Assembly (NCBI GenBank): GCA_001782475.1
Contig: MFOT01000008.1
Location: 1 to 53,296 of the forward strand
Length of the DNA: 53,296 nt
Direction of reading: 5' to 3'
Source: Candidatus Levybacteria bacterium RIFCSPLOWO2_01_FULL_38_21
GTDB taxonomy: Bacteria; Patescibacteriota; Microgenomatia; Levybacterales; UBA12049
In this document: piece by piece, positions 26,367 through 53,296 of the stretch
Layout of the letters: the number at the start of each line of letters is the position of its first letter
Position numbering within the stretch: position 1 is the stretch's first letter
Translations under genes and position numbers: made by a program
The notes under the pieces: generated by a model
Seen by the model: only the letters and a program-made list of their open reading frames with translations
Told to the model about the DNA's origin: nothing
The model's database searches: none

Positions 26367-27090
26367 ATACTATTACAAAAAGGCGGATAAATTTTTTAGA
26401 AAAACGAGGTTACGCCTATTAAGCCTTTTAATTCTTTTTGTTGGGGTGGTCATTGTTTTATATATATTTTTTCCTCTGATTTCATGGCAGATTTATTTTG
26501 CACCAGCTCTTGCATCATCTAGCATACAGACTCCCATCCCAAAATCAATGGTTATTAATCCGTCTACTATTGGGAGCTTAATCTCTCAAGCAGAAAATTC
26601 ACTCTCGGGAGTCGATTATACAAACGCCAAAAACTGGTTTCCGGGATTTAATCCCGCTCATCCTAAACAGCCAAAAATTCCATCTTATACGATTTCGATT
26701 CCGAAGCTTAAAATTAACAATGCTACAGTGTCAACACGCGATAATAACCTGGCAATTCATCTTGTTAATTATCAAAATACCGCTATTCCGCCGGAGTCGG
26801 GAAATGCTGTAATTTTTGGACATTCAACCCTGCCCCAGCTTTTTAATCCAAACGATTATAAGACTATTTTTGCCACTGCATATCAGCTAAGGGCAGGAGA
26901 TGAAATATATGCAAATGTAAACGGCATTTCTGTCAGATATAGAGTTTTTAATATTAGTGTCGTTGAACCGACAAATATATCTATTTTTGAACAAGACTAC
27001 AGCAATTCATATCTAACGCTTGTTACCTGTACCCCTCCCGGAACAACCTGGAAAAGACTGATTATAAAAGCAAGGTTTGAGAAAATTTAA
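26359..27090 (+). CDS. Sortase-family transpeptidase
   Basis: N-terminal TM anchor, catalytic His (IFGHSTL), the TLVTC Cys motif, and a downstream Arg. Confidence 0.85.
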   Translation: MGKYYYKKADKFFRKTRLRLLSLLILFVGVVIVLYIFFPLISWQIYFAPALASSSIQTPIPKSMVINPSTIGSLISQAENSLSGVDYTNAKNWFPGFNPAHPKQPKIPSYTISIPKLKINNATVSTRDNNLAIHLVNYQNTAIPPESGNAVIFGHSTLPQLFNPNDYKTIFATAYQLRAGDEIYANVNGISVRYRVFNISVVEPTNISIFEQDYSNSYLTLVTCTPPGTTWKRLIIKARFEKI

Positions 27091-46528: not shown

Positions 46529-46617
46529 AATCTACCTTAAAGCCGCAATGACTTGTGAAAGATTTTCAAACTAAATCTAAAGATTATAAATTTTTTAAAA
46601 AGAGTTATAATTTAATT

Positions 46618-47412
46618 ATGGAGTTCAGTGAGATCCCCCAGCTTTTGACAGAAAAAATAAGACGGAGAAAAATTCCTAAAAAGGAGACTTCACTTAGCAG
46701 AGACAGTAATCTTTCACAAAGAGGTTTTTTCTTTGAGATGAGAGATACAAGTAAGGAAATCCAGGCTGTTGCAAATGCGGTTGGACAACTTACAGATAAA
46801 GGTGGCGAAAACTCTGGAACATGTTTTGTTTTAGAAGATAAAAATAAATATCTAGTTTCCGCTCTACATTGTGGTAACCTTAAAGATAAAAATGCATTAC
46901 CCGACTATAAAGTTATTATGCCAGATGGAACTGAGATCCAATTAAGCCCAGCAAGTGGTGAAGTTACCTTACAAGACCCTGGTCTGGATTTATTTGTTTT
47001 TAAACTCAATAATCCTCCAGACAGCTTGCCATCACTAAAATTAGAGAAAACCGAAAGCATGGGAAAAAAATATATCAAGAAAAGCTTCTGTATAGGTTAC
47101 CCTTATACTTTTCTCAGACAGAGACCTACAGTGAAAGGACCTGTTGTTTCAGTAGGTGAATTTATTCACGATCCTAACTTGTATGACACAGAATATTATG
47201 TAACTGCAAGAATTGAGGGAGGAAACAGTGGCAGCCCAATAATAGATGCTGGTACTGGTGGTCTCTTGGGAATGGCTACATCAGTCGTGGCGAAACCCAG
47301 CAAGGAGGAAGGTGCTAATTTCCACTTAATCAATTCTGCGTATATAGTTCCTGCACATCAAATATATTTGAATCTTTTACAACAACAAGAGTCTTCCTCT
47401 ATTCTATTATGA
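46618..47412 (+). CDS. Trypsin-like (S1/PA clan) serine peptidase with no obvious signal peptide
   Basis: Candidate His (SALHCG), Asp (GLDLFVFKL) and Ser (GGNSGSPIID). Start set to ATG 46618, 6 nt after TATAAT (46606-46611). Confidence 0.65.
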   Translation: MEFSEIPQLLTEKIRRRKIPKKETSLSRDSNLSQRGFFFEMRDTSKEIQAVANAVGQLTDKGGENSGTCFVLEDKNKYLVSALHCGNLKDKNALPDYKVIMPDGTEIQLSPASGEVTLQDPGLDLFVFKLNNPPDSLPSLKLEKTESMGKKYIKKSFCIGYPYTFLRQRPTVKGPVVSVGEFIHDPNLYDTEYYVTARIEGGNSGSPIIDAGTGGLLGMATSVVAKPSKEEGANFHLINSAYIVPAHQIYLNLLQQQESSSILL

Positions 47413-47469: not shown

Positions 47470-49857
47470 TTAGATTGCTGATATTGTTATTTGTGAATTG
47501 TTAACTGTTATTAATAATTTATCTCCTCTTTTTATCTCATCTTTTAATATTTTTTGGGCGAGGAGGTCTTCGATGTTGTCCTGAATATAGCGGTTGATCG
47601 GCCGGGCTCCAAATTCTTCGTCAAACCCTTCTCTTATTATTTTCTCGATCGCTGTCTTATCAAAACTAACCGTTATATCCTGCTCAAGCATTCTATCAGA
47701 TAGTTCTTTTAAAAGAATTTTAGTAACTTGCTGTATTTCTTCCTGTCCCAAGGGTTTAAAGACAATTATTCCGTCGAACCTATTTAAAAGTTCCGGCTTA
47801 AGAATCCCTTTTGTCTGTAAAAACTCAAGAAGTTGCTCTTGAAACTTTTTATCGATTGCCGTTCCTTTATTTACCTCTTCCCGAATAAATTCTGAGGCCG
47901 CATTTGAAGTTGCAATAATTATTGCATTGGTAAAAGAAACAGTTTTGCCCTTATTGTCGGTGAGCCTTCCGTCATCAAGAATCTGGAGGAAAAGATTTAA
48001 GATGTTTGAACTTGCCTTTTCAAATTCGTCCAAGAGAACCAGTGAGAATGGACTATCTAATATTTTATCTGTCAGCTCTCCCGGCATTTCCTCTTCGCCC
48101 GGCATTGAACCTAAGAGTCTTTTTAAAGAGCCCTCCTCCGAGTATTCGCTCATATCAAGCCTAATCATTTTATGCGCATTTCCAAAATATATTTTTGCCA
48201 AGGTTTTAGCAGTTTCTGTTTTTCCAACACCGGTTGGTCCTAAAAACAAAAATGAAATCGGCTTATCTTTTATGGTAAGACCAGTTCGCAATCTTCTCAT
48301 TGCCTCTGATACTTCAGAAACTGCTTCTCTTTGATCAACAACTCTTTTGTGAATTTCATCCTCCAGGTTAAGAAGGAGTTCTTTTTCTTTCTTACCAGGC
48401 TTTCCAACAGCAATCTTAGTTTTGCTTTCTATCTTTTGAATAACATCCTGTTCTTCAACAATTTGCTTTTTGGAAAGCACTGCCGAAGCAGCTGCATCCT
48501 CAAGAAGGGTTATTGAAGAACCGGGAAGAACTCGGTCTGGCAAATATTTTTTAGCATATTTTAGACTTGCATCAATAGCTCGATAGGATATTTTTATGTT
48601 GTCCGATCTTTCTATTTCGCTTGCCTTTTTAAAAAGCATTGTAAGAGAAGTTTCTTCACTTGGCTCATCAACTTTTATTATTTCCAAGTTTTCAAGAAGT
48701 GTTTTTCGGGTTTCTACAAATTTTTTAAATGATCCCGGTGTAATAGTTGCTATTATCCGGATTGCTCCCCTTTGAATATATGGGATGAGGATTCCCGAAA
48801 GATCAAGGTGAAAGGACGAAGAACCCAAAATATTTTCAAATGACGGTAAAAAAACAATAATGTTTCCGCAGTGAGAAAGCTCTGCGATTACACTATCGAG
48901 TCTTTCCTCAAGTTGCCCAAGATTATCTGATCCCGACAAAAGCGCGTCAACCAAAAGCATATAAAACCTTTGATGGTAAAGGCTTCCCCTTAAATTTCCT
49001 ATAAAGCTTTCAAAAGCAAGACTTTCCGCTAATTCTGTTTTGCCGCTTCCTGTCTCTCCAACCAAAAGAGTGCTTTTCCCCTTATACATTCCCTCAACAA
49101 GCTGTCTGATCTCACTTTCTCGTCCTAAAAAAGAAGGTTTTTTTTGCAAAACTTCTCCGGTTAAATCAACCATGTATTTCTTAGTCTCGATTGTCCACCC
49201 CGTTACCCAACCTTCTCCAATACCCTCTCCCCAAAAGCTGACTCTAAAAGATTTTGGATTCTCTTCATCGGTAAATCTTGTTCTTGCCCAAGAAAGAATT
49301 TGAATTAGTTCTTCTTTTTTAAGATTTTTATTGAAAATAACTTTTGTCTTGTCCTCTGTTAAAAGCAGATAAGAAACAAATAAATCCATTGTTGTAACAA
49401 ACTTTCCTTTAAGATTTTTTGAAATTTCGAAAGCGTACCTTATTAATTCTTCTCTTGGAATATCAATAAGTTTTATTTCTTCTTGGGAAAGAATATCCAT
49501 TTTATCGAGTAGGAAATTTATGGAAGGGATTTTTAAAAGTTTTCTTATTAAAGACTGCGTATTATTTGAACTTAAGAAAATACTTAAAGATCTTAGGGTG
49601 AATGAATCAAGGGGATCTCCTTTGTTTAATTGAACTTCGATTTCCGGAAGTTTTCTCGAAATTTTAAAATGGAAAAAAGTTTCTATTATTAAAAATAAAG
49701 AAAGCAGAAATAAAGGAGTTTTAATCAAAGATAAATTGAGAGAATTGTTGAAGATGGAAAGTAGAATATAGAAAAATAGAAAAATAAATAAAAATATCCT
49801 GATTATAAAAACTATCAGGGATTGGTAAATATAATAAATTCTCGCGTATCCGATCAT
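47470..49857 (-). CDS. Membrane-anchored Clp/Hsp100-family AAA+ ATPase (two modules, first degenerate)
   Basis: N-terminal hydrophobic helices and a Clp_N-like region. D1 has Walker A GETGSGKT but FLPSFEN where FIDELH is expected. D2 is intact (GPTGVGKTE, LLDEFEKA). No IGF/VGF ClpP loop was seen. Confidence 0.8.
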   Translation of the reverse strand: MIGYARIYYIYQSLIVFIIRIFLFIFLFFYILLSIFNNSLNLSLIKTPLFLLSLFLIIETFFHFKISRKLPEIEVQLNKGDPLDSFTLRSLSIFLSSNNTQSLIRKLLKIPSINFLLDKMDILSQEEIKLIDIPREELIRYAFEISKNLKGKFVTTMDLFVSYLLLTEDKTKVIFNKNLKKEELIQILSWARTRFTDEENPKSFRVSFWGEGIGEGWVTGWTIETKKYMVDLTGEVLQKKPSFLGRESEIRQLVEGMYKGKSTLLVGETGSGKTELAESLAFESFIGNLRGSLYHQRFYMLLVDALLSGSDNLGQLEERLDSVIAELSHCGNIIVFLPSFENILGSSSFHLDLSGILIPYIQRGAIRIIATITPGSFKKFVETRKTLLENLEIIKVDEPSEETSLTMLFKKASEIERSDNIKISYRAIDASLKYAKKYLPDRVLPGSSITLLEDAAASAVLSKKQIVEEQDVIQKIESKTKIAVGKPGKKEKELLLNLEDEIHKRVVDQREAVSEVSEAMRRLRTGLTIKDKPISFLFLGPTGVGKTETAKTLAKIYFGNAHKMIRLDMSEYSEEGSLKRLLGSMPGEEEMPGELTDKILDSPFSLVLLDEFEKASSNILNLFLQILDDGRLTDNKGKTVSFTNAIIIATSNAASEFIREEVNKGTAIDKKFQEQLLEFLQTKGILKPELLNRFDGIIVFKPLGQEEIQQVTKILLKELSDRMLEQDITVSFDKTAIEKIIREGFDEEFGARPINRYIQDNIEDLLAQKILKDEIKRGDKLLITVNNSQITISAI

Positions 49858-49858
49858 T

Positions 49859-50170
49859 TTATGAAAAAAATAAAAATACTGTTGCAACAGGCCATAAGAT
49901 AAATGAAACAAAAAAGATTATTTCAAGAAAGATTAGTAAAGAAAATAATATTAAGTCTGCGATTATTACAAATGACTTGATAAAAATTCCCATAGCGACC
50001 GAAAATACAACTAATCCCTTCCTGTACTCGTTTTTCCATGGCTTAAAATAGGTTCTTATTAAAAGGGGGAGCGACAAAAGCGCAAGCATTGAATTGTTTA
50101 ACGAGGAAAAAAATCTTATGAGTCCTATCGGAGCTTCAAAAAACCAAAATTTTAAAAAAATTATCACCAT
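49859..50170 (-). CDS. Small polytopic membrane protein
   Basis: 103 aa, strongly hydrophobic. Its stop lies 1 nt before the Clp-like ATG. Confidence 0.45.
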   Translation of the reverse strand: MVIIFLKFWFFEAPIGLIRFFSSLNNSMLALLSLPLLIRTYFKPWKNEYRKGLVVFSVAMGIFIKSFVIIADLILFSLLIFLEIIFFVSFILWPVATVFLFFS

Positions 50171-50210: not shown

Positions 50211-50229
50211 ACCCCGCCAAAAGCGGGGT
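50211..50229. repeat. Family A hairpin ACCCCGC-CAAAA-GCGGGGT immediately after the M28 peptidase stop
   Basis: 7-bp perfect stem, intergenic. May act as an intercistronic or terminator hairpin. Confidence 0.75.
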
Positions 50230-51396
50230 TTATTTGGGATAACAGATAAGCGGGCAAAGCTGAATATTTTTTTGGCCCGAAGAACACTTAGGGTCAGGGT
50301 AGCAGTTATAAAGTTTTGAGGTTGGGGCAGGGAGGACAGGCGTAGCAGTAGGCGTTGTGGGTGGTATCCCGGGAGAATTTGTTGTTGTAGGTCCGCCCGG
50401 GGTTGGAGTATTAGGTGAAGGCAATGATTCAGCATTAGCCAATTCTACAAGCGCTCCTGCTACAGCCTTCGCTGTTTTTGTAAGTTGAGAAAAATTAATT
50501 TTATCCATGGTGTCTTGAACTGAATGATAAGTAGGGTTATTATTTATACCGCACTCGTATCCAAATGCAGCAGGCTTACCCGCATAACCAAATGCTGCGT
50601 GATCGCTCCTCCCGTTGGTGCTTGACCCAGTACGAATGTTAAGCTCTATGTTATATTTGCTATTAACCTCCAGAATTTTAGAAGTCAAGATATTACTTCC
50701 GGTATTCGGCCAGTAATAAAAATTTACACACTCGGAATTCGGACCATACCCAACCATATCAACATTTATAACGCCTTTTACCACTTTGCCTTGCGGAATA
50801 TGATCAACATAATAATAACTTCCAATAAGTCCCTGCTCTTCCCCCGAGAAGGCAATAAACTCAAGGGAATATTCAAAAGATACACCCAAGCTTTTCAAGA
50901 CTCTTGCTGATTCCATGACAAGAACGGTTCCACTACCATTATCATCCGCACCCGGAGCTGGATTATTGGTTCCAGACATTGCGGCTGTTGAGTCCATATG
51001 AGAAGTTAAAATATAAACTTCATTCTCTTTCCTACCTTTAATCCTCCCGATAATATTTCTAGTTCCCGCACCACCAACAGTAAAATCTTGAAAGCTACTT
51101 TCAAGCCCAAGGCTATCAAAATGGCTCTTTATATACTCTGCCTCTACCCTATTTCCGCGGGGCTTACCTTTTTCTCCATTATAAGGACTGTACCTTGTCT
51201 GTTTCTGATCGGGCCCGGCTATATCATCATTGTCAGTAAGATTTGTAAGATATTCTCTAAGTTTTTGTTCTGAAACCCGCTCTATTGCAGTCTTTACATG
51301 AGTACTTGCTAAACTAACTTTGGGTTTTGCTTTTTTCGTGTAGGAAAGACCTATCAAAAATAACACCAAAAACAGAATTAGAAAAATTTTCCTCAT
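50230..51396 (-). CDS. Secreted M28-family aminopeptidase with a PT-rich linker and a C-terminal 4-Cys module
   Basis: Signal peptide, zinc-ligand blocks (HMDS, GADDNGSG, SGEEQGL, VDMVG, SDHAAF), then a P/T-rich stretch and KLYNCYPDPKCSSGQKNIQLCPLICYPK. Confidence 0.85.
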   Translation of the reverse strand: MRKIFLILFLVLFLIGLSYTKKAKPKVSLASTHVKTAIERVSEQKLREYLTNLTDNDDIAGPDQKQTRYSPYNGEKGKPRGNRVEAEYIKSHFDSLGLESSFQDFTVGGAGTRNIIGRIKGRKENEVYILTSHMDSTAAMSGTNNPAPGADDNGSGTVLVMESARVLKSLGVSFEYSLEFIAFSGEEQGLIGSYYYVDHIPQGKVVKGVINVDMVGYGPNSECVNFYYWPNTGSNILTSKILEVNSKYNIELNIRTGSSTNGRSDHAAFGYAGKPAAFGYECGINNNPTYHSVQDTMDKINFSQLTKTAKAVAGALVELANAESLPSPNTPTPGGPTTTNSPGIPPTTPTATPVLPAPTSKLYNCYPDPKCSSGQKNIQLCPLICYPK

Positions 51397-52064
51397 GCTT
51401 TCTCGTCATGTCCTTTTCTGCCAATGTAACCCAATTTTCTTAAAATCAAAGCTACAATAACAATAAAAATTACTACAACCAGAAAAACTATCCAAAAAGG
51501 AGAAATTTCTTTCTTTTCTTGTTTTGGCACAGATGCAGGAAAAGTTGTTCCAGTGGATGCTGGGATTGTTTTTTTAATCTCGAGGTTTGGGGGGACGATT
51601 TTTTCAGGAAAAGGAACATCAAAAAACTCGGCTATTACTCCTTCGTGAGCTAATGTAACACCCACAGGTGTTTTTAGAAGTGTGTAATAAGAAGAGACAG
51701 GAATTACTTCCCCAAACGCTTGCAGTTTAGCCGATTGATTAGGTTTTGGATGGTAAAAAAGAGCGTAGCGAGAAATATCTGTGCTGTAGTCTAAGATTTT
51801 TGGATTGAATCCTTTATTGATAAAATTCTTTCTTTGTTGCTCTGTGATCAGGGATAGAAAAAGTGGTTCTTTAACTTCTTCTCCTTCAAGATAAGCCAAA
51901 ACTTTTGTGCTTTGCGAAAATAAAAAATCCGTATCATCCCGAGTTGTGTAGGGAGTTACTGAAAGAAGAAGATTTACCTCTTGAGCAAAAATCTTGGGGA
52001 AGGCTGGAACCAAAAGGCAGACAATTATAAGCAGTAGACCTATTCTCCCAATTATTTTTCTCAT
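51393..52064 (-). CDS. Exported protein with an N-terminal signal/anchor and a C-terminal TM anchor, unknown family
   Basis: Start set at MRKIIGRIGLLLIIVCLL. C-terminal FWIVFLVVVIFIVIVALIL is followed by basic residues. TAATG overlap with the S8 gene and ATGA overlap with the M28 gene. Confidence 0.5.
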   Translation of the reverse strand: MRKIIGRIGLLLIIVCLLVPAFPKIFAQEVNLLLSVTPYTTRDDTDFLFSQSTKVLAYLEGEEVKEPLFLSLITEQQRKNFINKGFNPKILDYSTDISRYALFYHPKPNQSAKLQAFGEVIPVSSYYTLLKTPVGVTLAHEGVIAEFFDVPFPEKIVPPNLEIKKTIPASTGTTFPASVPKQEKKEISPFWIVFLVVVIFIVIVALILRKLGYIGRKGHDEKA

Positions 52065-53296
52065 TATTTCGGAGTACAAATTAATTGGCATTGCTGAATA
52101 ACTTTCTGTGCGGGTGGACAATTTGGATCAATAACACAATTATAAAAGACTATCGGTGTTGGTGTCGGCGTTGGGCTTAATCCCCCCGAACCTCCGCCTG
52201 TTGGAGTTGGCGTTGGTACTCCTGGAGGTAAAGTCGGTATTAAAGTAGGAGTCATCCCAGGAGGCAGGGTTGGTGTTGGACCCGAAGTTGGGGTATTGGT
52301 TGGAGGTGGTTGTCCACTACCGCAAGCTTGAAGAGCTCTAAAGACATTTAGTCTTGGACCAATCGGTTTATCGGTCGATATGGGGTCTGCGCTTGCAACT
52401 AAACAATCACTGACTTGCTGTGGGGTAAGGTTTGGGTAAAGAGATAAAATAAGAGCCGCTGCTCCTGCAACATGAGGAGAAGCCATGGATGTTCCACTAA
52501 GAACTCTATATCCATTGCCAGGTGCCGTCGAGAGAATATTCAACCCTGGAGCAGCTATTTCAACAGTAGAACCATAATTTGAAAAACTAGTCCTGCTGTC
52601 AGAGGAGGTGGTGGCCCCCACTGTTATTACTCCAGCACAGTTAGCTGGAGAAAAACCTGACGCTGACACTGCATCGTTGCCTGCCGCAACAGCAATAACC
52701 ACACCTTTTTGTACAGCATAATCTATAGCTCTTTGCATGCCTATGGAACAGGAACCTGAACCTCCTATGCTCATGTTTATAACCCGTGCTCCCCTATCGG
52801 CTGCTGTCGATATAGCTGTAGGGATAGATAAACCCCCAGGACAGCCCCTCAACGTAACCATTAACGACATTAACTTCACTTCCCAGTTAATCCCTGGGAC
52901 TCCTATGCTGTTATTACCAACTGCTCCTATGGTTCCTGCCACGTGCGTAGCGTGGTAACCACAAATTAAGTTATTTACTTTTTCTATATCATTTAAATCT
53001 TCGTGGTCTGCAATCCCACTATCAATTACAGCAACTACTACTCCTTGGGAACCTTTTGTGATGTCCCACGCGTTGGGCACATCAATCTTTCTTAATCCCC
53101 ACATTTCAGTGTCTGGATATCTTGGGTCATTTGGAGTTATAAACATTTTCATTATATAGTTGGGTTCTGCCGATTCAATACCTTCAGCATTACTTAAAAT
53201 CTTATGTACTAACCTAACATCAGTCCCCTTTCTTAGCTTCAGAATGTAAAATCTTCGTAAAATGGGGTCATTATTTGTAACGTGAAGCCTCTCTTG
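52064..53296 (-). CDS. Subtilisin-like S8 serine peptidase (5' end beyond the window) with a PT-rich linker and a C-terminal 4-Cys module
   Basis: Triad blocks VIDSGI, HATHVAGTIGA and SGTSMASPHVAG. The frame stays open to the window edge and reads an I9-type propeptide end (..AEPNYI). The C-terminus is VFYNCVIDPNCPPAQKVIQQCQLICTPK. Confidence 0.9.
   Translation of the reverse strand, partial: QERLHVTNNDPILRRFYILKLRKGTDVRLVHKILSNAEGIESAEPNYIMKMFITPNDPRYPDTEMWGLRKIDVPNAWDITKGSQGVVVAVIDSGIADHEDLNDIEKVNNLICGYHATHVAGTIGAVGNNSIGVPGINWEVKLMSLMVTLRGCPGGLSIPTAISTAADRGARVINMSIGGSGSCSIGMQRAIDYAVQKGVVIAVAAGNDAVSASGFSPANCAGVITVGATTSSDSRTSFSNYGSTVEIAAPGLNILSTAPGNGYRVLSGTSMASPHVAGAAALILSLYPNLTPQQVSDCLVASADPISTDKPIGPRLNVFRALQACGSGQPPPTNTPTSGPTPTLPPGMTPTLIPTLPPGVPTPTPTGGGSGGLSPTPTPTPIVFYNCVIDPNCPPAQKVIQQCQLICTPK

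Follow-up and report, generated by a model that had tools for sequence, protein, structure and literature searches.

The element described here is, conceptually, a variant of a well-known type, the C-terminal accessory modules that secreted hydrolases carry. It is a module of about 28 residues with four cysteines that ends two unrelated peptidases, an S8 subtilase and an M28 aminopeptidase, of Candidatus Levybacteria bacterium RIFCSPLOWO2_01_FULL_38_21 (order Levybacterales, Patescibacteria). Both peptidases are encoded at one end of the 53,296-nucleotide stretch of DNA that we analysed (the window), which is contig C8 of a 788 kb genome that is 98% complete. By analogy, the best functional precedent for the module would be the PPC domain, a β-sandwich of ∼70–90 residues. 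Peptidases of families M4, M9, M28 and S8 carry PPC domains C-terminally, and these domains have been shown to bind protein substrates; substrate binding, localization and inhibition have been proposed as their roles (PMC3327674). Like PPC, the module is a non-catalytic C-terminal appendage on secreted peptidases of families M4, M28 and S8. Unlike PPC, which has no four-cysteine pattern and is usually cleaved off, it is only ∼28 residues long, has four invariant cysteines and is retained inside fusion proteins.

Three further systems invite comparison. The original prediction likened the module to the fungal CBM1-type anchors, and the layout does correspond: in both cases a catalytic domain is followed by a Pro/Thr-rich linker and a terminal mini-domain of ∼30 residues with four cysteines and two disulfides, the disulfides of the module being predicted ones. 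Beyond the layout the resemblance fails. The module gave no match to CBM_1 at E ≤ 10, has a single conserved aromatic column and does not belong to that family; CBM1 domains are eukaryotic, occur on glycoside hydrolases and bind with three aromatic residues that form a flat face, whereas the carriers of the module include peptidases and dockerin proteins. The carriers also resemble the Sdr/MSCRAMM wall-anchored proteins of Gram-positive bacteria, with a functional domain, an SdrD_B-type stalk, a Pro/Thr- or Ser/Asp-rich region and a C-terminal element, but they have no LPXTG motif, no C-terminal transmembrane helix and no basic tail, and the sortases of the genome have an LPVTG substrate of their own. 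Dockerins (type I and the Cys-rich fungal dockerin/CBM10) are likewise small terminal modules, and place enzymes on a partner. The module, however, is not recognized as a dockerin, has no calcium-binding EF-hand repeats and sits beside dockerins instead of replacing them.

The last 3 kb of the window hold three minus-strand genes, which encode the subtilase (52064..53296, 5′-truncated at the contig end), a bitopic protein of 223 residues and the aminopeptidase (50230..51396). Both peptidases had been predicted to end in a P/T/G-rich linker followed by a 28-residue module, and the letters of the sequence agree exactly. As read from the sequence, a linker of ∼57 residues in the subtilase (52151..52321, minus strand; 14 of the 20 residues in its densest 20-residue stretch are Pro or Thr) leads to the module VFYNCVIDPNCPPAQKVIQQCQLICTPK (52067..52150, minus strand; stop codon at 52064–52066), and a P/T-rich linker of ∼36 residues in the aminopeptidase (50317..50424, minus strand) leads to the module KLYNCYPDPKCSSGQKNIQLCPLICYPK (50233..50316, minus strand; stop codon at 50230–50232). 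The cysteine spacing is C-x5-C-x9-C-x3-C in both. The two modules are identical at 16 of 28 residues (57%) and at 51 of 84 bases (61%), with 12 of the 28 third codon positions identical and different codons used for eight of the 16 shared residues; NIQLCPLICYPK and VIQQCQLICTPK are example peptides from the module. A six-frame search of the genome with the M28 tail as the query recovered the S8 tail with E = 7.4e-6, and a six-frame regular-expression search found only these two copies in the 788 kb. A profile of the family scores both tails at E ∼ 1e-15 (1.2e-15 for S8 and 5.5e-16 for M28). The S8 module has 92%-identical relatives in other proteins, and the M28 tail is 69–73% identical to tails from other genomes as against 62% to the S8 tail in that comparison, so that each copy is closer to relatives elsewhere than to its operon partner. 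Together with the 61% DNA identity this rules out a recent intragenomic duplication and bears out the proposal that the similarity is kept at the protein level.

The module is not confined to these two proteins. A 29-residue query matched 24 of 61 related genomes, in which the carriers end in clearly homologous tails, and a first profile (A1) was built from 22 sequences. Against 400 genomes drawn evenly across the phylum, this profile gave significant matches in long open reading frames only in the present genome and in one genome of the same family; within the order it matched 67 of 245 genomes and 27 of 103 genera, with one match per genome in all but four genomes. A search of 1.84 billion representative proteins returned 98 matches at E ≤ 1e-3, of which ∼95 are true, and in ∼90 of these ∼95 carriers the module ends 1–9 residues (usually three) before the stop codon. 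As judged from these searches, the family is restricted to one order, the Levybacterales. In an alignment of 96 sequences (A3), Cys10, Cys16, Cys26 and Cys30 are invariant, and Asp13 (94 of 96), Leu28 (95), Gln24 (90) and Pro14 (86) are nearly so. An aromatic residue (Tyr or Phe) precedes the first cysteine by two positions in 87 of the 96 and forms the only conserved aromatic column; the C-x5-C-x9-C-x3-C spacing is kept in 83. The consensus is [YF]-x-C-x2-D-P-x-C-x6-[IL]-Q-x-C-x-L-x-C-T-P-x, covering ∼26–28 residues. At the invariant positions both TGT and TGC are used for cysteine and all six codons for leucine, which argues for old conservation at the protein level. These results show that the module folds independently, is conserved and has been under purifying selection for a long time.

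The suggestion that the domain might be undescribed held up, as profile searches matched no defined family. Pfam gave no match over the tails of the window proteins and no PPC domain in these proteins at E ≤ 0.1, and NCBIfam gave nothing over the tails at E ≤ 10. When the 96 isolated modules were searched against Pfam at E ≤ 10, only four scattered and mutually unrelated weak matches were obtained. PPC (PF04151) was absent from these modules at the same threshold and from 95 carriers at E ≤ 1e-4, and the module is thus not a PPC domain. The profile found nothing below E = 0.17 among all PDB chain sequences, and Foldseek found no match to the module model in the PDB, although a 33-residue query has little power. 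The Pfam, NCBIfam, PDB sequence and PDB fold searches together gave nothing below E = 0.004 over the module, and searches of the literature found no description of it. A known domain is ruled out by these negatives; on the evidence of the sequence comparisons, the four-cysteine module is a genuine undescribed domain family with a clear profile. A new, very small domain family is thereby defined, with a profile that can be tested.

We also asked which catalytic domains carry the module, and there are several unrelated ones. Pfam analysis of 95 representative carriers identified S8 in 23, M4 in 15, M28 in four and M64 in two, as well as Dockerin_1 in 11, a cohesin in one and SdrD_B immunoglobulin-like domains in 26; a type I dockerin lies directly before the module in 11 carriers. 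A typical carrier has an N-terminal transmembrane anchor (present in nearly all carriers), a propeptide (FTP or fervidolysin-N-pro), a catalytic domain, an SdrD_B or CarboxypepD_reg stalk, a Pro/Thr-rich linker and the module. The module nearly always follows such a linker, often with an SdrD_B-type stalk domain before it. A further group of carriers has no recognizable catalytic domain and includes dockerin proteins without a recognized peptidase domain. The module has thus been shuffled among exported proteins of different catalytic families and dockerin proteins. It can also be internal. A single polypeptide of 1050 residues from genome G058 (L024, G058:C1, 4351–7503) consists of M4, SdrD_B, a Pro/Thr-rich linker, the module, a Gly- and Pro/Thr-rich linker and M28, and internal modules are also found in P0003, P0069, P0074 and P0044; as M28 was found in only four of the 95 carriers, at most some of the proteins with internal modules are M4–M28 fusions. 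Its internal position in fusions means that the module is an autonomous domain and not a sorting signal of the cleaved C-terminal kind, which depends on a free end. This agrees with the statement in the original prediction that it is not a transmembrane or LPXTG sorting signal: the tails end in ...LICYPK and ...LICTPK without a hydrophobic segment, and the LPXTG motif, hydrophobic helix and basic tail of that class are all missing. The genome uses LPVTG and sortases for other proteins.

Polypeptides of ∼950–1090 residues with the order M4, SdrD_B, Pro/Thr-rich linker, module, linker and M28 were seen in L024 (G058:C1) and also in P0003 and P0069. In another carrier, L036 (G022:C3, 4159–6108), the module is preceded by a Cys-rich repeat of a different kind, TCGNGTCELGETNVNCPSDC, present in two copies.

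An AlphaFold2 model was calculated for the M28 copy using the 96-sequence alignment. It has a mean predicted local distance difference test (pLDDT) score of 81, with strands at residues 8–12 (containing Cys10) and 28–32 (containing Cys30), and with Cys16 and Cys26 in the loop that connects the two strands. The model suggests a small β-hairpin in which the first and fourth cysteines lie on paired strands and the second and third in the loop, which would give two nested disulfides, C1–C4 and C2–C3. VKOR and a DsbA-like protein are encoded side by side in the genome, and a second DsbA-like gene is present, so that extracytoplasmic disulfide formation is possible in this organism.

We put at about an even chance the reading in which the module, placed at the distal end of the stalk, has no catalytic role and serves for binding or retention, an assignment made by analogy. 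Stapled by two disulfides, it would work like the PPC or CBM1-type appendages. In the S8 and M4 carriers the N-terminal transmembrane anchor lies upstream of an autocleavable propeptide, and maturation would sever it; with the anchor lost, the C-terminal module would be the sole element able to hold the mature enzyme on a surface ligand, for which the cell's own envelope, a host surface and a protein substrate are candidates. The endopeptidase (S8) and the aminopeptidase (M28), bearing the same module, would both be brought to the same target, and the M4–module–M28 fusions of some relatives would achieve this within one polypeptide. The shared module on two unrelated peptidases and the fusions elsewhere argue for such a co-localization of endopeptidase and aminopeptidase, which would suit a tiny-genome organism that has to scavenge amino acids. 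The Patescibacteria (the candidate phyla radiation) have tiny genomes, cannot be cultivated on their own and need to obtain their amino acids from the environment or from host cells. In a Levybacterales cell the module usually marks a single exported protein, in most cases a peptidase. If it does bind a host or envelope ligand, it would help to find the hosts of Levybacteria that are not in culture, and would also provide a minimal binding scaffold stapled by disulfides.

Several points weigh against this role. The function is derived from architecture and analogy, and the cysteine pairing from the strand positions of the model alone. Across the order VKOR is not associated with the module (found in 28 of the 67 genomes with the module and in 67 of the 178 without; odds ratio 1.19, p = 0.56). 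Disulfide formation thus lacks phyletic backing, a result which neither supports nor refutes a dependence on disulfides. A general anchoring module would not usually be present in a single copy per genome. The M28 protein keeps an N-terminal anchor or signal of its own (MRKIFLILFLVLFLIGLS) and so would not need the module for its retention, and the one conserved aromatic position is unlike the flat aromatic face of CBM1.

The module could instead be a C-terminal pro-region that aids export or folding, or that holds the peptidase inactive, and is removed on maturation. Such removal is usual for PPC domains and for the C-terminal pro-sequences of some subtilases, and the same peptidase families carry PPC (M4, M28 and S8; PMC3327674). 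The strictly terminal position in ∼90 of 95 carriers and the exposed, protease-accessible linker that precedes the module would also fit. We nevertheless consider a pro-region to be unlikely: the module is kept between two catalytic domains in the fusions and is also found on dockerin proteins without a recognized peptidase domain, and 28 residues on a flexible stalk of 36–57 residues make a poor candidate for an active-site inhibitor or a folding chaperone. If the module is a disposable pro-region after all, it would be a routine addition to the domain catalogues.

The second alternative concerns the chemistry of the module and not its role, and overlaps with binding or retention in this respect: the four cysteines might bind a metal ion, as in a zinc knuckle or similar, instead of forming disulfides, in a metal-stabilized mini-domain that may serve for binding or otherwise. 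The missing association with VKOR leaves room for this form, and no VKOR is detectable in 39 of the 67 genomes with the module, which are probably those of anaerobic groundwater organisms; invariance of the four cysteines would be expected here too. The spacings of x5, x9 and x3, however, are unlike the usual CxxC knuckles, and the modules gave no match beyond chance to any zinc-finger family in Pfam. The protein is exported, the present genome has VKOR and two DsbA-like genes, and the model places the first and fourth cysteines on paired strands in what would be the usual geometry of a disulfide. We therefore regard a metal-bound form as quite unlikely, and continue with binding or retention by a disulfide-stapled module as the preferred reading.

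The genomic position of the carriers bears on whether the module has a dedicated partner. Synteny was analysed by all-against-all clustering of the open reading frames in 21 loci. The conserved order begins with a ClpC-like ATPase gene with a Clp_N domain, a small prodomain-like open reading frame and the module carrier, and continues with a DnaJ/CbpA-like gene (restricted to one family), a membrane protein of ∼108 residues, a membrane-anchored Clp-like ATPase, nusA and infB. The carrier thus usually occupies one syntenic slot between two Clp-like ATPase genes; dockerin-type carriers are located elsewhere in the genome, and the slot is empty in L048. In the same-genus genome G001 the S8-module gene is directly followed by the small membrane protein gene, so that the bitopic and M28-module genes are a two-gene addition in the present genome. 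Here, the small polytopic membrane protein (103 residues; 49859..50170, minus strand) and the membrane-anchored Clp-like AAA+ ATPase (47470..49911, minus strand; Pfam AAA_2 and ClpB_D2-small) are context and lie outside the module system. In several genomes the two are joined in one open reading frame of 822–891 residues, an in-frame fusion that marks them as one functional unit. The small membrane protein is found in 206 of the 245 genomes of the order, with or without the module, and the pair is thus core equipment that is independent of the module.

The original prediction counted the peptidase genes and the membrane-protein/Clp-like pair together as a dedicated surface-proteolysis module. 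A single dedicated operon that includes the pair finds no support: the pair is part of the core, and a GC-rich hairpin separates it from the M28 gene. This element (ACCCCGC-CAAAA-GCGGGGT at 50211..50229, not assigned to a strand) has a perfect 7 bp stem with six G–C pairs and lies directly past the M28 stop codon, its first base being the one next to that codon. It suggests that the pair belongs to a separate transcription unit, and it is probably the end of the upstream one, with a putative role as a terminator; it is followed by no run of T on the minus (coding) strand.

The bitopic protein (51393..52064, minus strand, counted from the ATG that overlaps the S8 stop codon) begins with a signal peptide, whose cleavage context is of the A-Q type, followed by a conserved ectodomain of ∼140 residues, a C-terminal transmembrane helix and a basic tail. 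The original prediction correctly placed a bitopic exported protein between the two peptidase genes, and the overlaps that it described, TAATG at the S8 stop and bitopic start and ATGA at the bitopic stop and M28 start, are present in the sequence; the protein is tied to M28, though, and not to the module. Homologues occur in 10 of the 245 genomes of the order, and in all ten the gene adjoins an M28 gene, whereas four of the ten have no module. A word-based homologue search with the bitopic protein recovered only the protein itself. AlphaFold2 gave a pLDDT of 79 overall and of >88 over most of the ectodomain, which is modelled as two β-α-β-β-α-β-like units. Comparison with the solved structures by sequence and by fold gave no significant relative; the fold search with the ectodomain returned insignificant matches only, to tandem ferredoxin-like (RRM/ACT) folds. 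The bitopic protein is an M28-linked membrane partner, not a partner of the module, and as it follows M28 it is ruled out as a module receptor. One might guess at a tether, a chaperone or an inhibitor. The M4–module–M28 fusion gene is followed by a bitopic protein gene in G058, G472 and G482.

The third alternative makes the module a docking tag for a partner in its conserved neighbourhood, either the small polytopic membrane protein with its Clp-like ATPase or the bitopic protein. One copy per genome and the location of the carrier, in most loci, between the ClpC-like gene on one side and the pair of small membrane protein and Clp-like ATPase on the other would be expected of such a tag, but we judge it to be very unlikely. 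The small protein and the ATPase are found in 206 of the 245 genomes, as against 67 for the module, and as core genes are unlikely to be a module-specific partner; the slot can be empty, the dockerin-type carriers lie elsewhere, the bitopic protein goes with M28 even where there is no module, and clpC, dnaJ, nusA and infB are housekeeping genes, the order of which is conserved anyway. Highly improbable, in our estimate, is the specific form in which a lineage-specific tag connects one exported peptidase in each cell to a machine of the envelope made up of the Clp-like ATPase and its small polytopic partner. If it were true, an organism unable to make its own amino acids would couple proteolysis outside the cell to the handling or uptake of polypeptides driven by ATP. 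A general surface tag on many proteins is ruled out, as there are two copies here and one in nearly all other genomes, almost always in one syntenic slot. The single copy per genome and the fixed slot are unusual, though they do not demonstrate an unusual mechanism. Finally, the chance that the two tails are alike by coincidence or low complexity is negligible: the stretch is just 28 residues long and lies beside low-complexity linkers, but the profile scores of both copies, the ∼95 relatives with four invariant cysteines and conserved Asp, Gln and Leu positions, and the codon turnover at invariant residues refute this through the searches of the order and of the 1.84 billion proteins and through the alignment.

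The catalytic domains of the two peptidases are readily assigned. The S8 domain (PF00082, E = 5.7e-50; 52355..53047, minus strand, residues 84–314 of the partial open reading frame) scores 170.7 bits against a gathering cut-off of 21.8, which makes it a member of Peptidase S8, and the DSG, HATHVAG and GTSMASPH motifs can be read in the protein. The M28 domain (PF04389, E = 1e-39; 50458..51057, minus strand, residues 114–313) scores 136.7 bits against a cut-off of 21.3, as a member of Peptidase M28, with the HMDS, DDNGSG, GEEQGL, VDMVG and SDHAAF motifs; the protein also matches a LapA-like family (E = 1.3e-27).

The start of the S8 gene is missing from the window, and contig C6 of the same genome carries the remainder of the locus at its end. 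This upstream half comprises the ClpC-like gene (C6:6941–9475), a prodomain-like open reading frame of 180 residues (C6:9485–10033) and the S8 N-terminus (C6:10014–10241). All assemblies of the locus, including L057, L058 and L059, break within the 5′ part of the S8 gene. The 180-residue open reading frame and the N-terminal prodomain region of the S8 protein itself are paralogous (40% identity), a repetition that may be the cause of the breaks. The public sequencing runs that hold the locus are from groundwater and soil metagenomes, all of them DNA.

Three to four sortases are encoded in the genome, one of them in the window at 26692–27075, and a protein of 382 residues that ends in LPVTG, a hydrophobic segment and Arg is encoded directly upstream of a sortase gene (contig C2:44645–46325). 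A second S8 paralogue, of 448 residues (G000, contig C2:36360–37706, outside the window), has a long Pro/Thr-rich linker and a shorter two-cysteine tail, KPWWCVYAPSRYLCK, followed by the stop codon. Tails of this type are conserved on S8 proteins of ∼447 residues in G001, G025 and G021 and on a 252-residue open reading frame in G048, and may represent a second family of C-terminal mini-tails. A gene for a trypsin-like (Trypsin_2) peptidase (46555–47412, plus strand) is convergent to the Clp-like ATPase gene in the window; its product has no obvious signal peptide, and the gene has the same position in other assemblies of the population.

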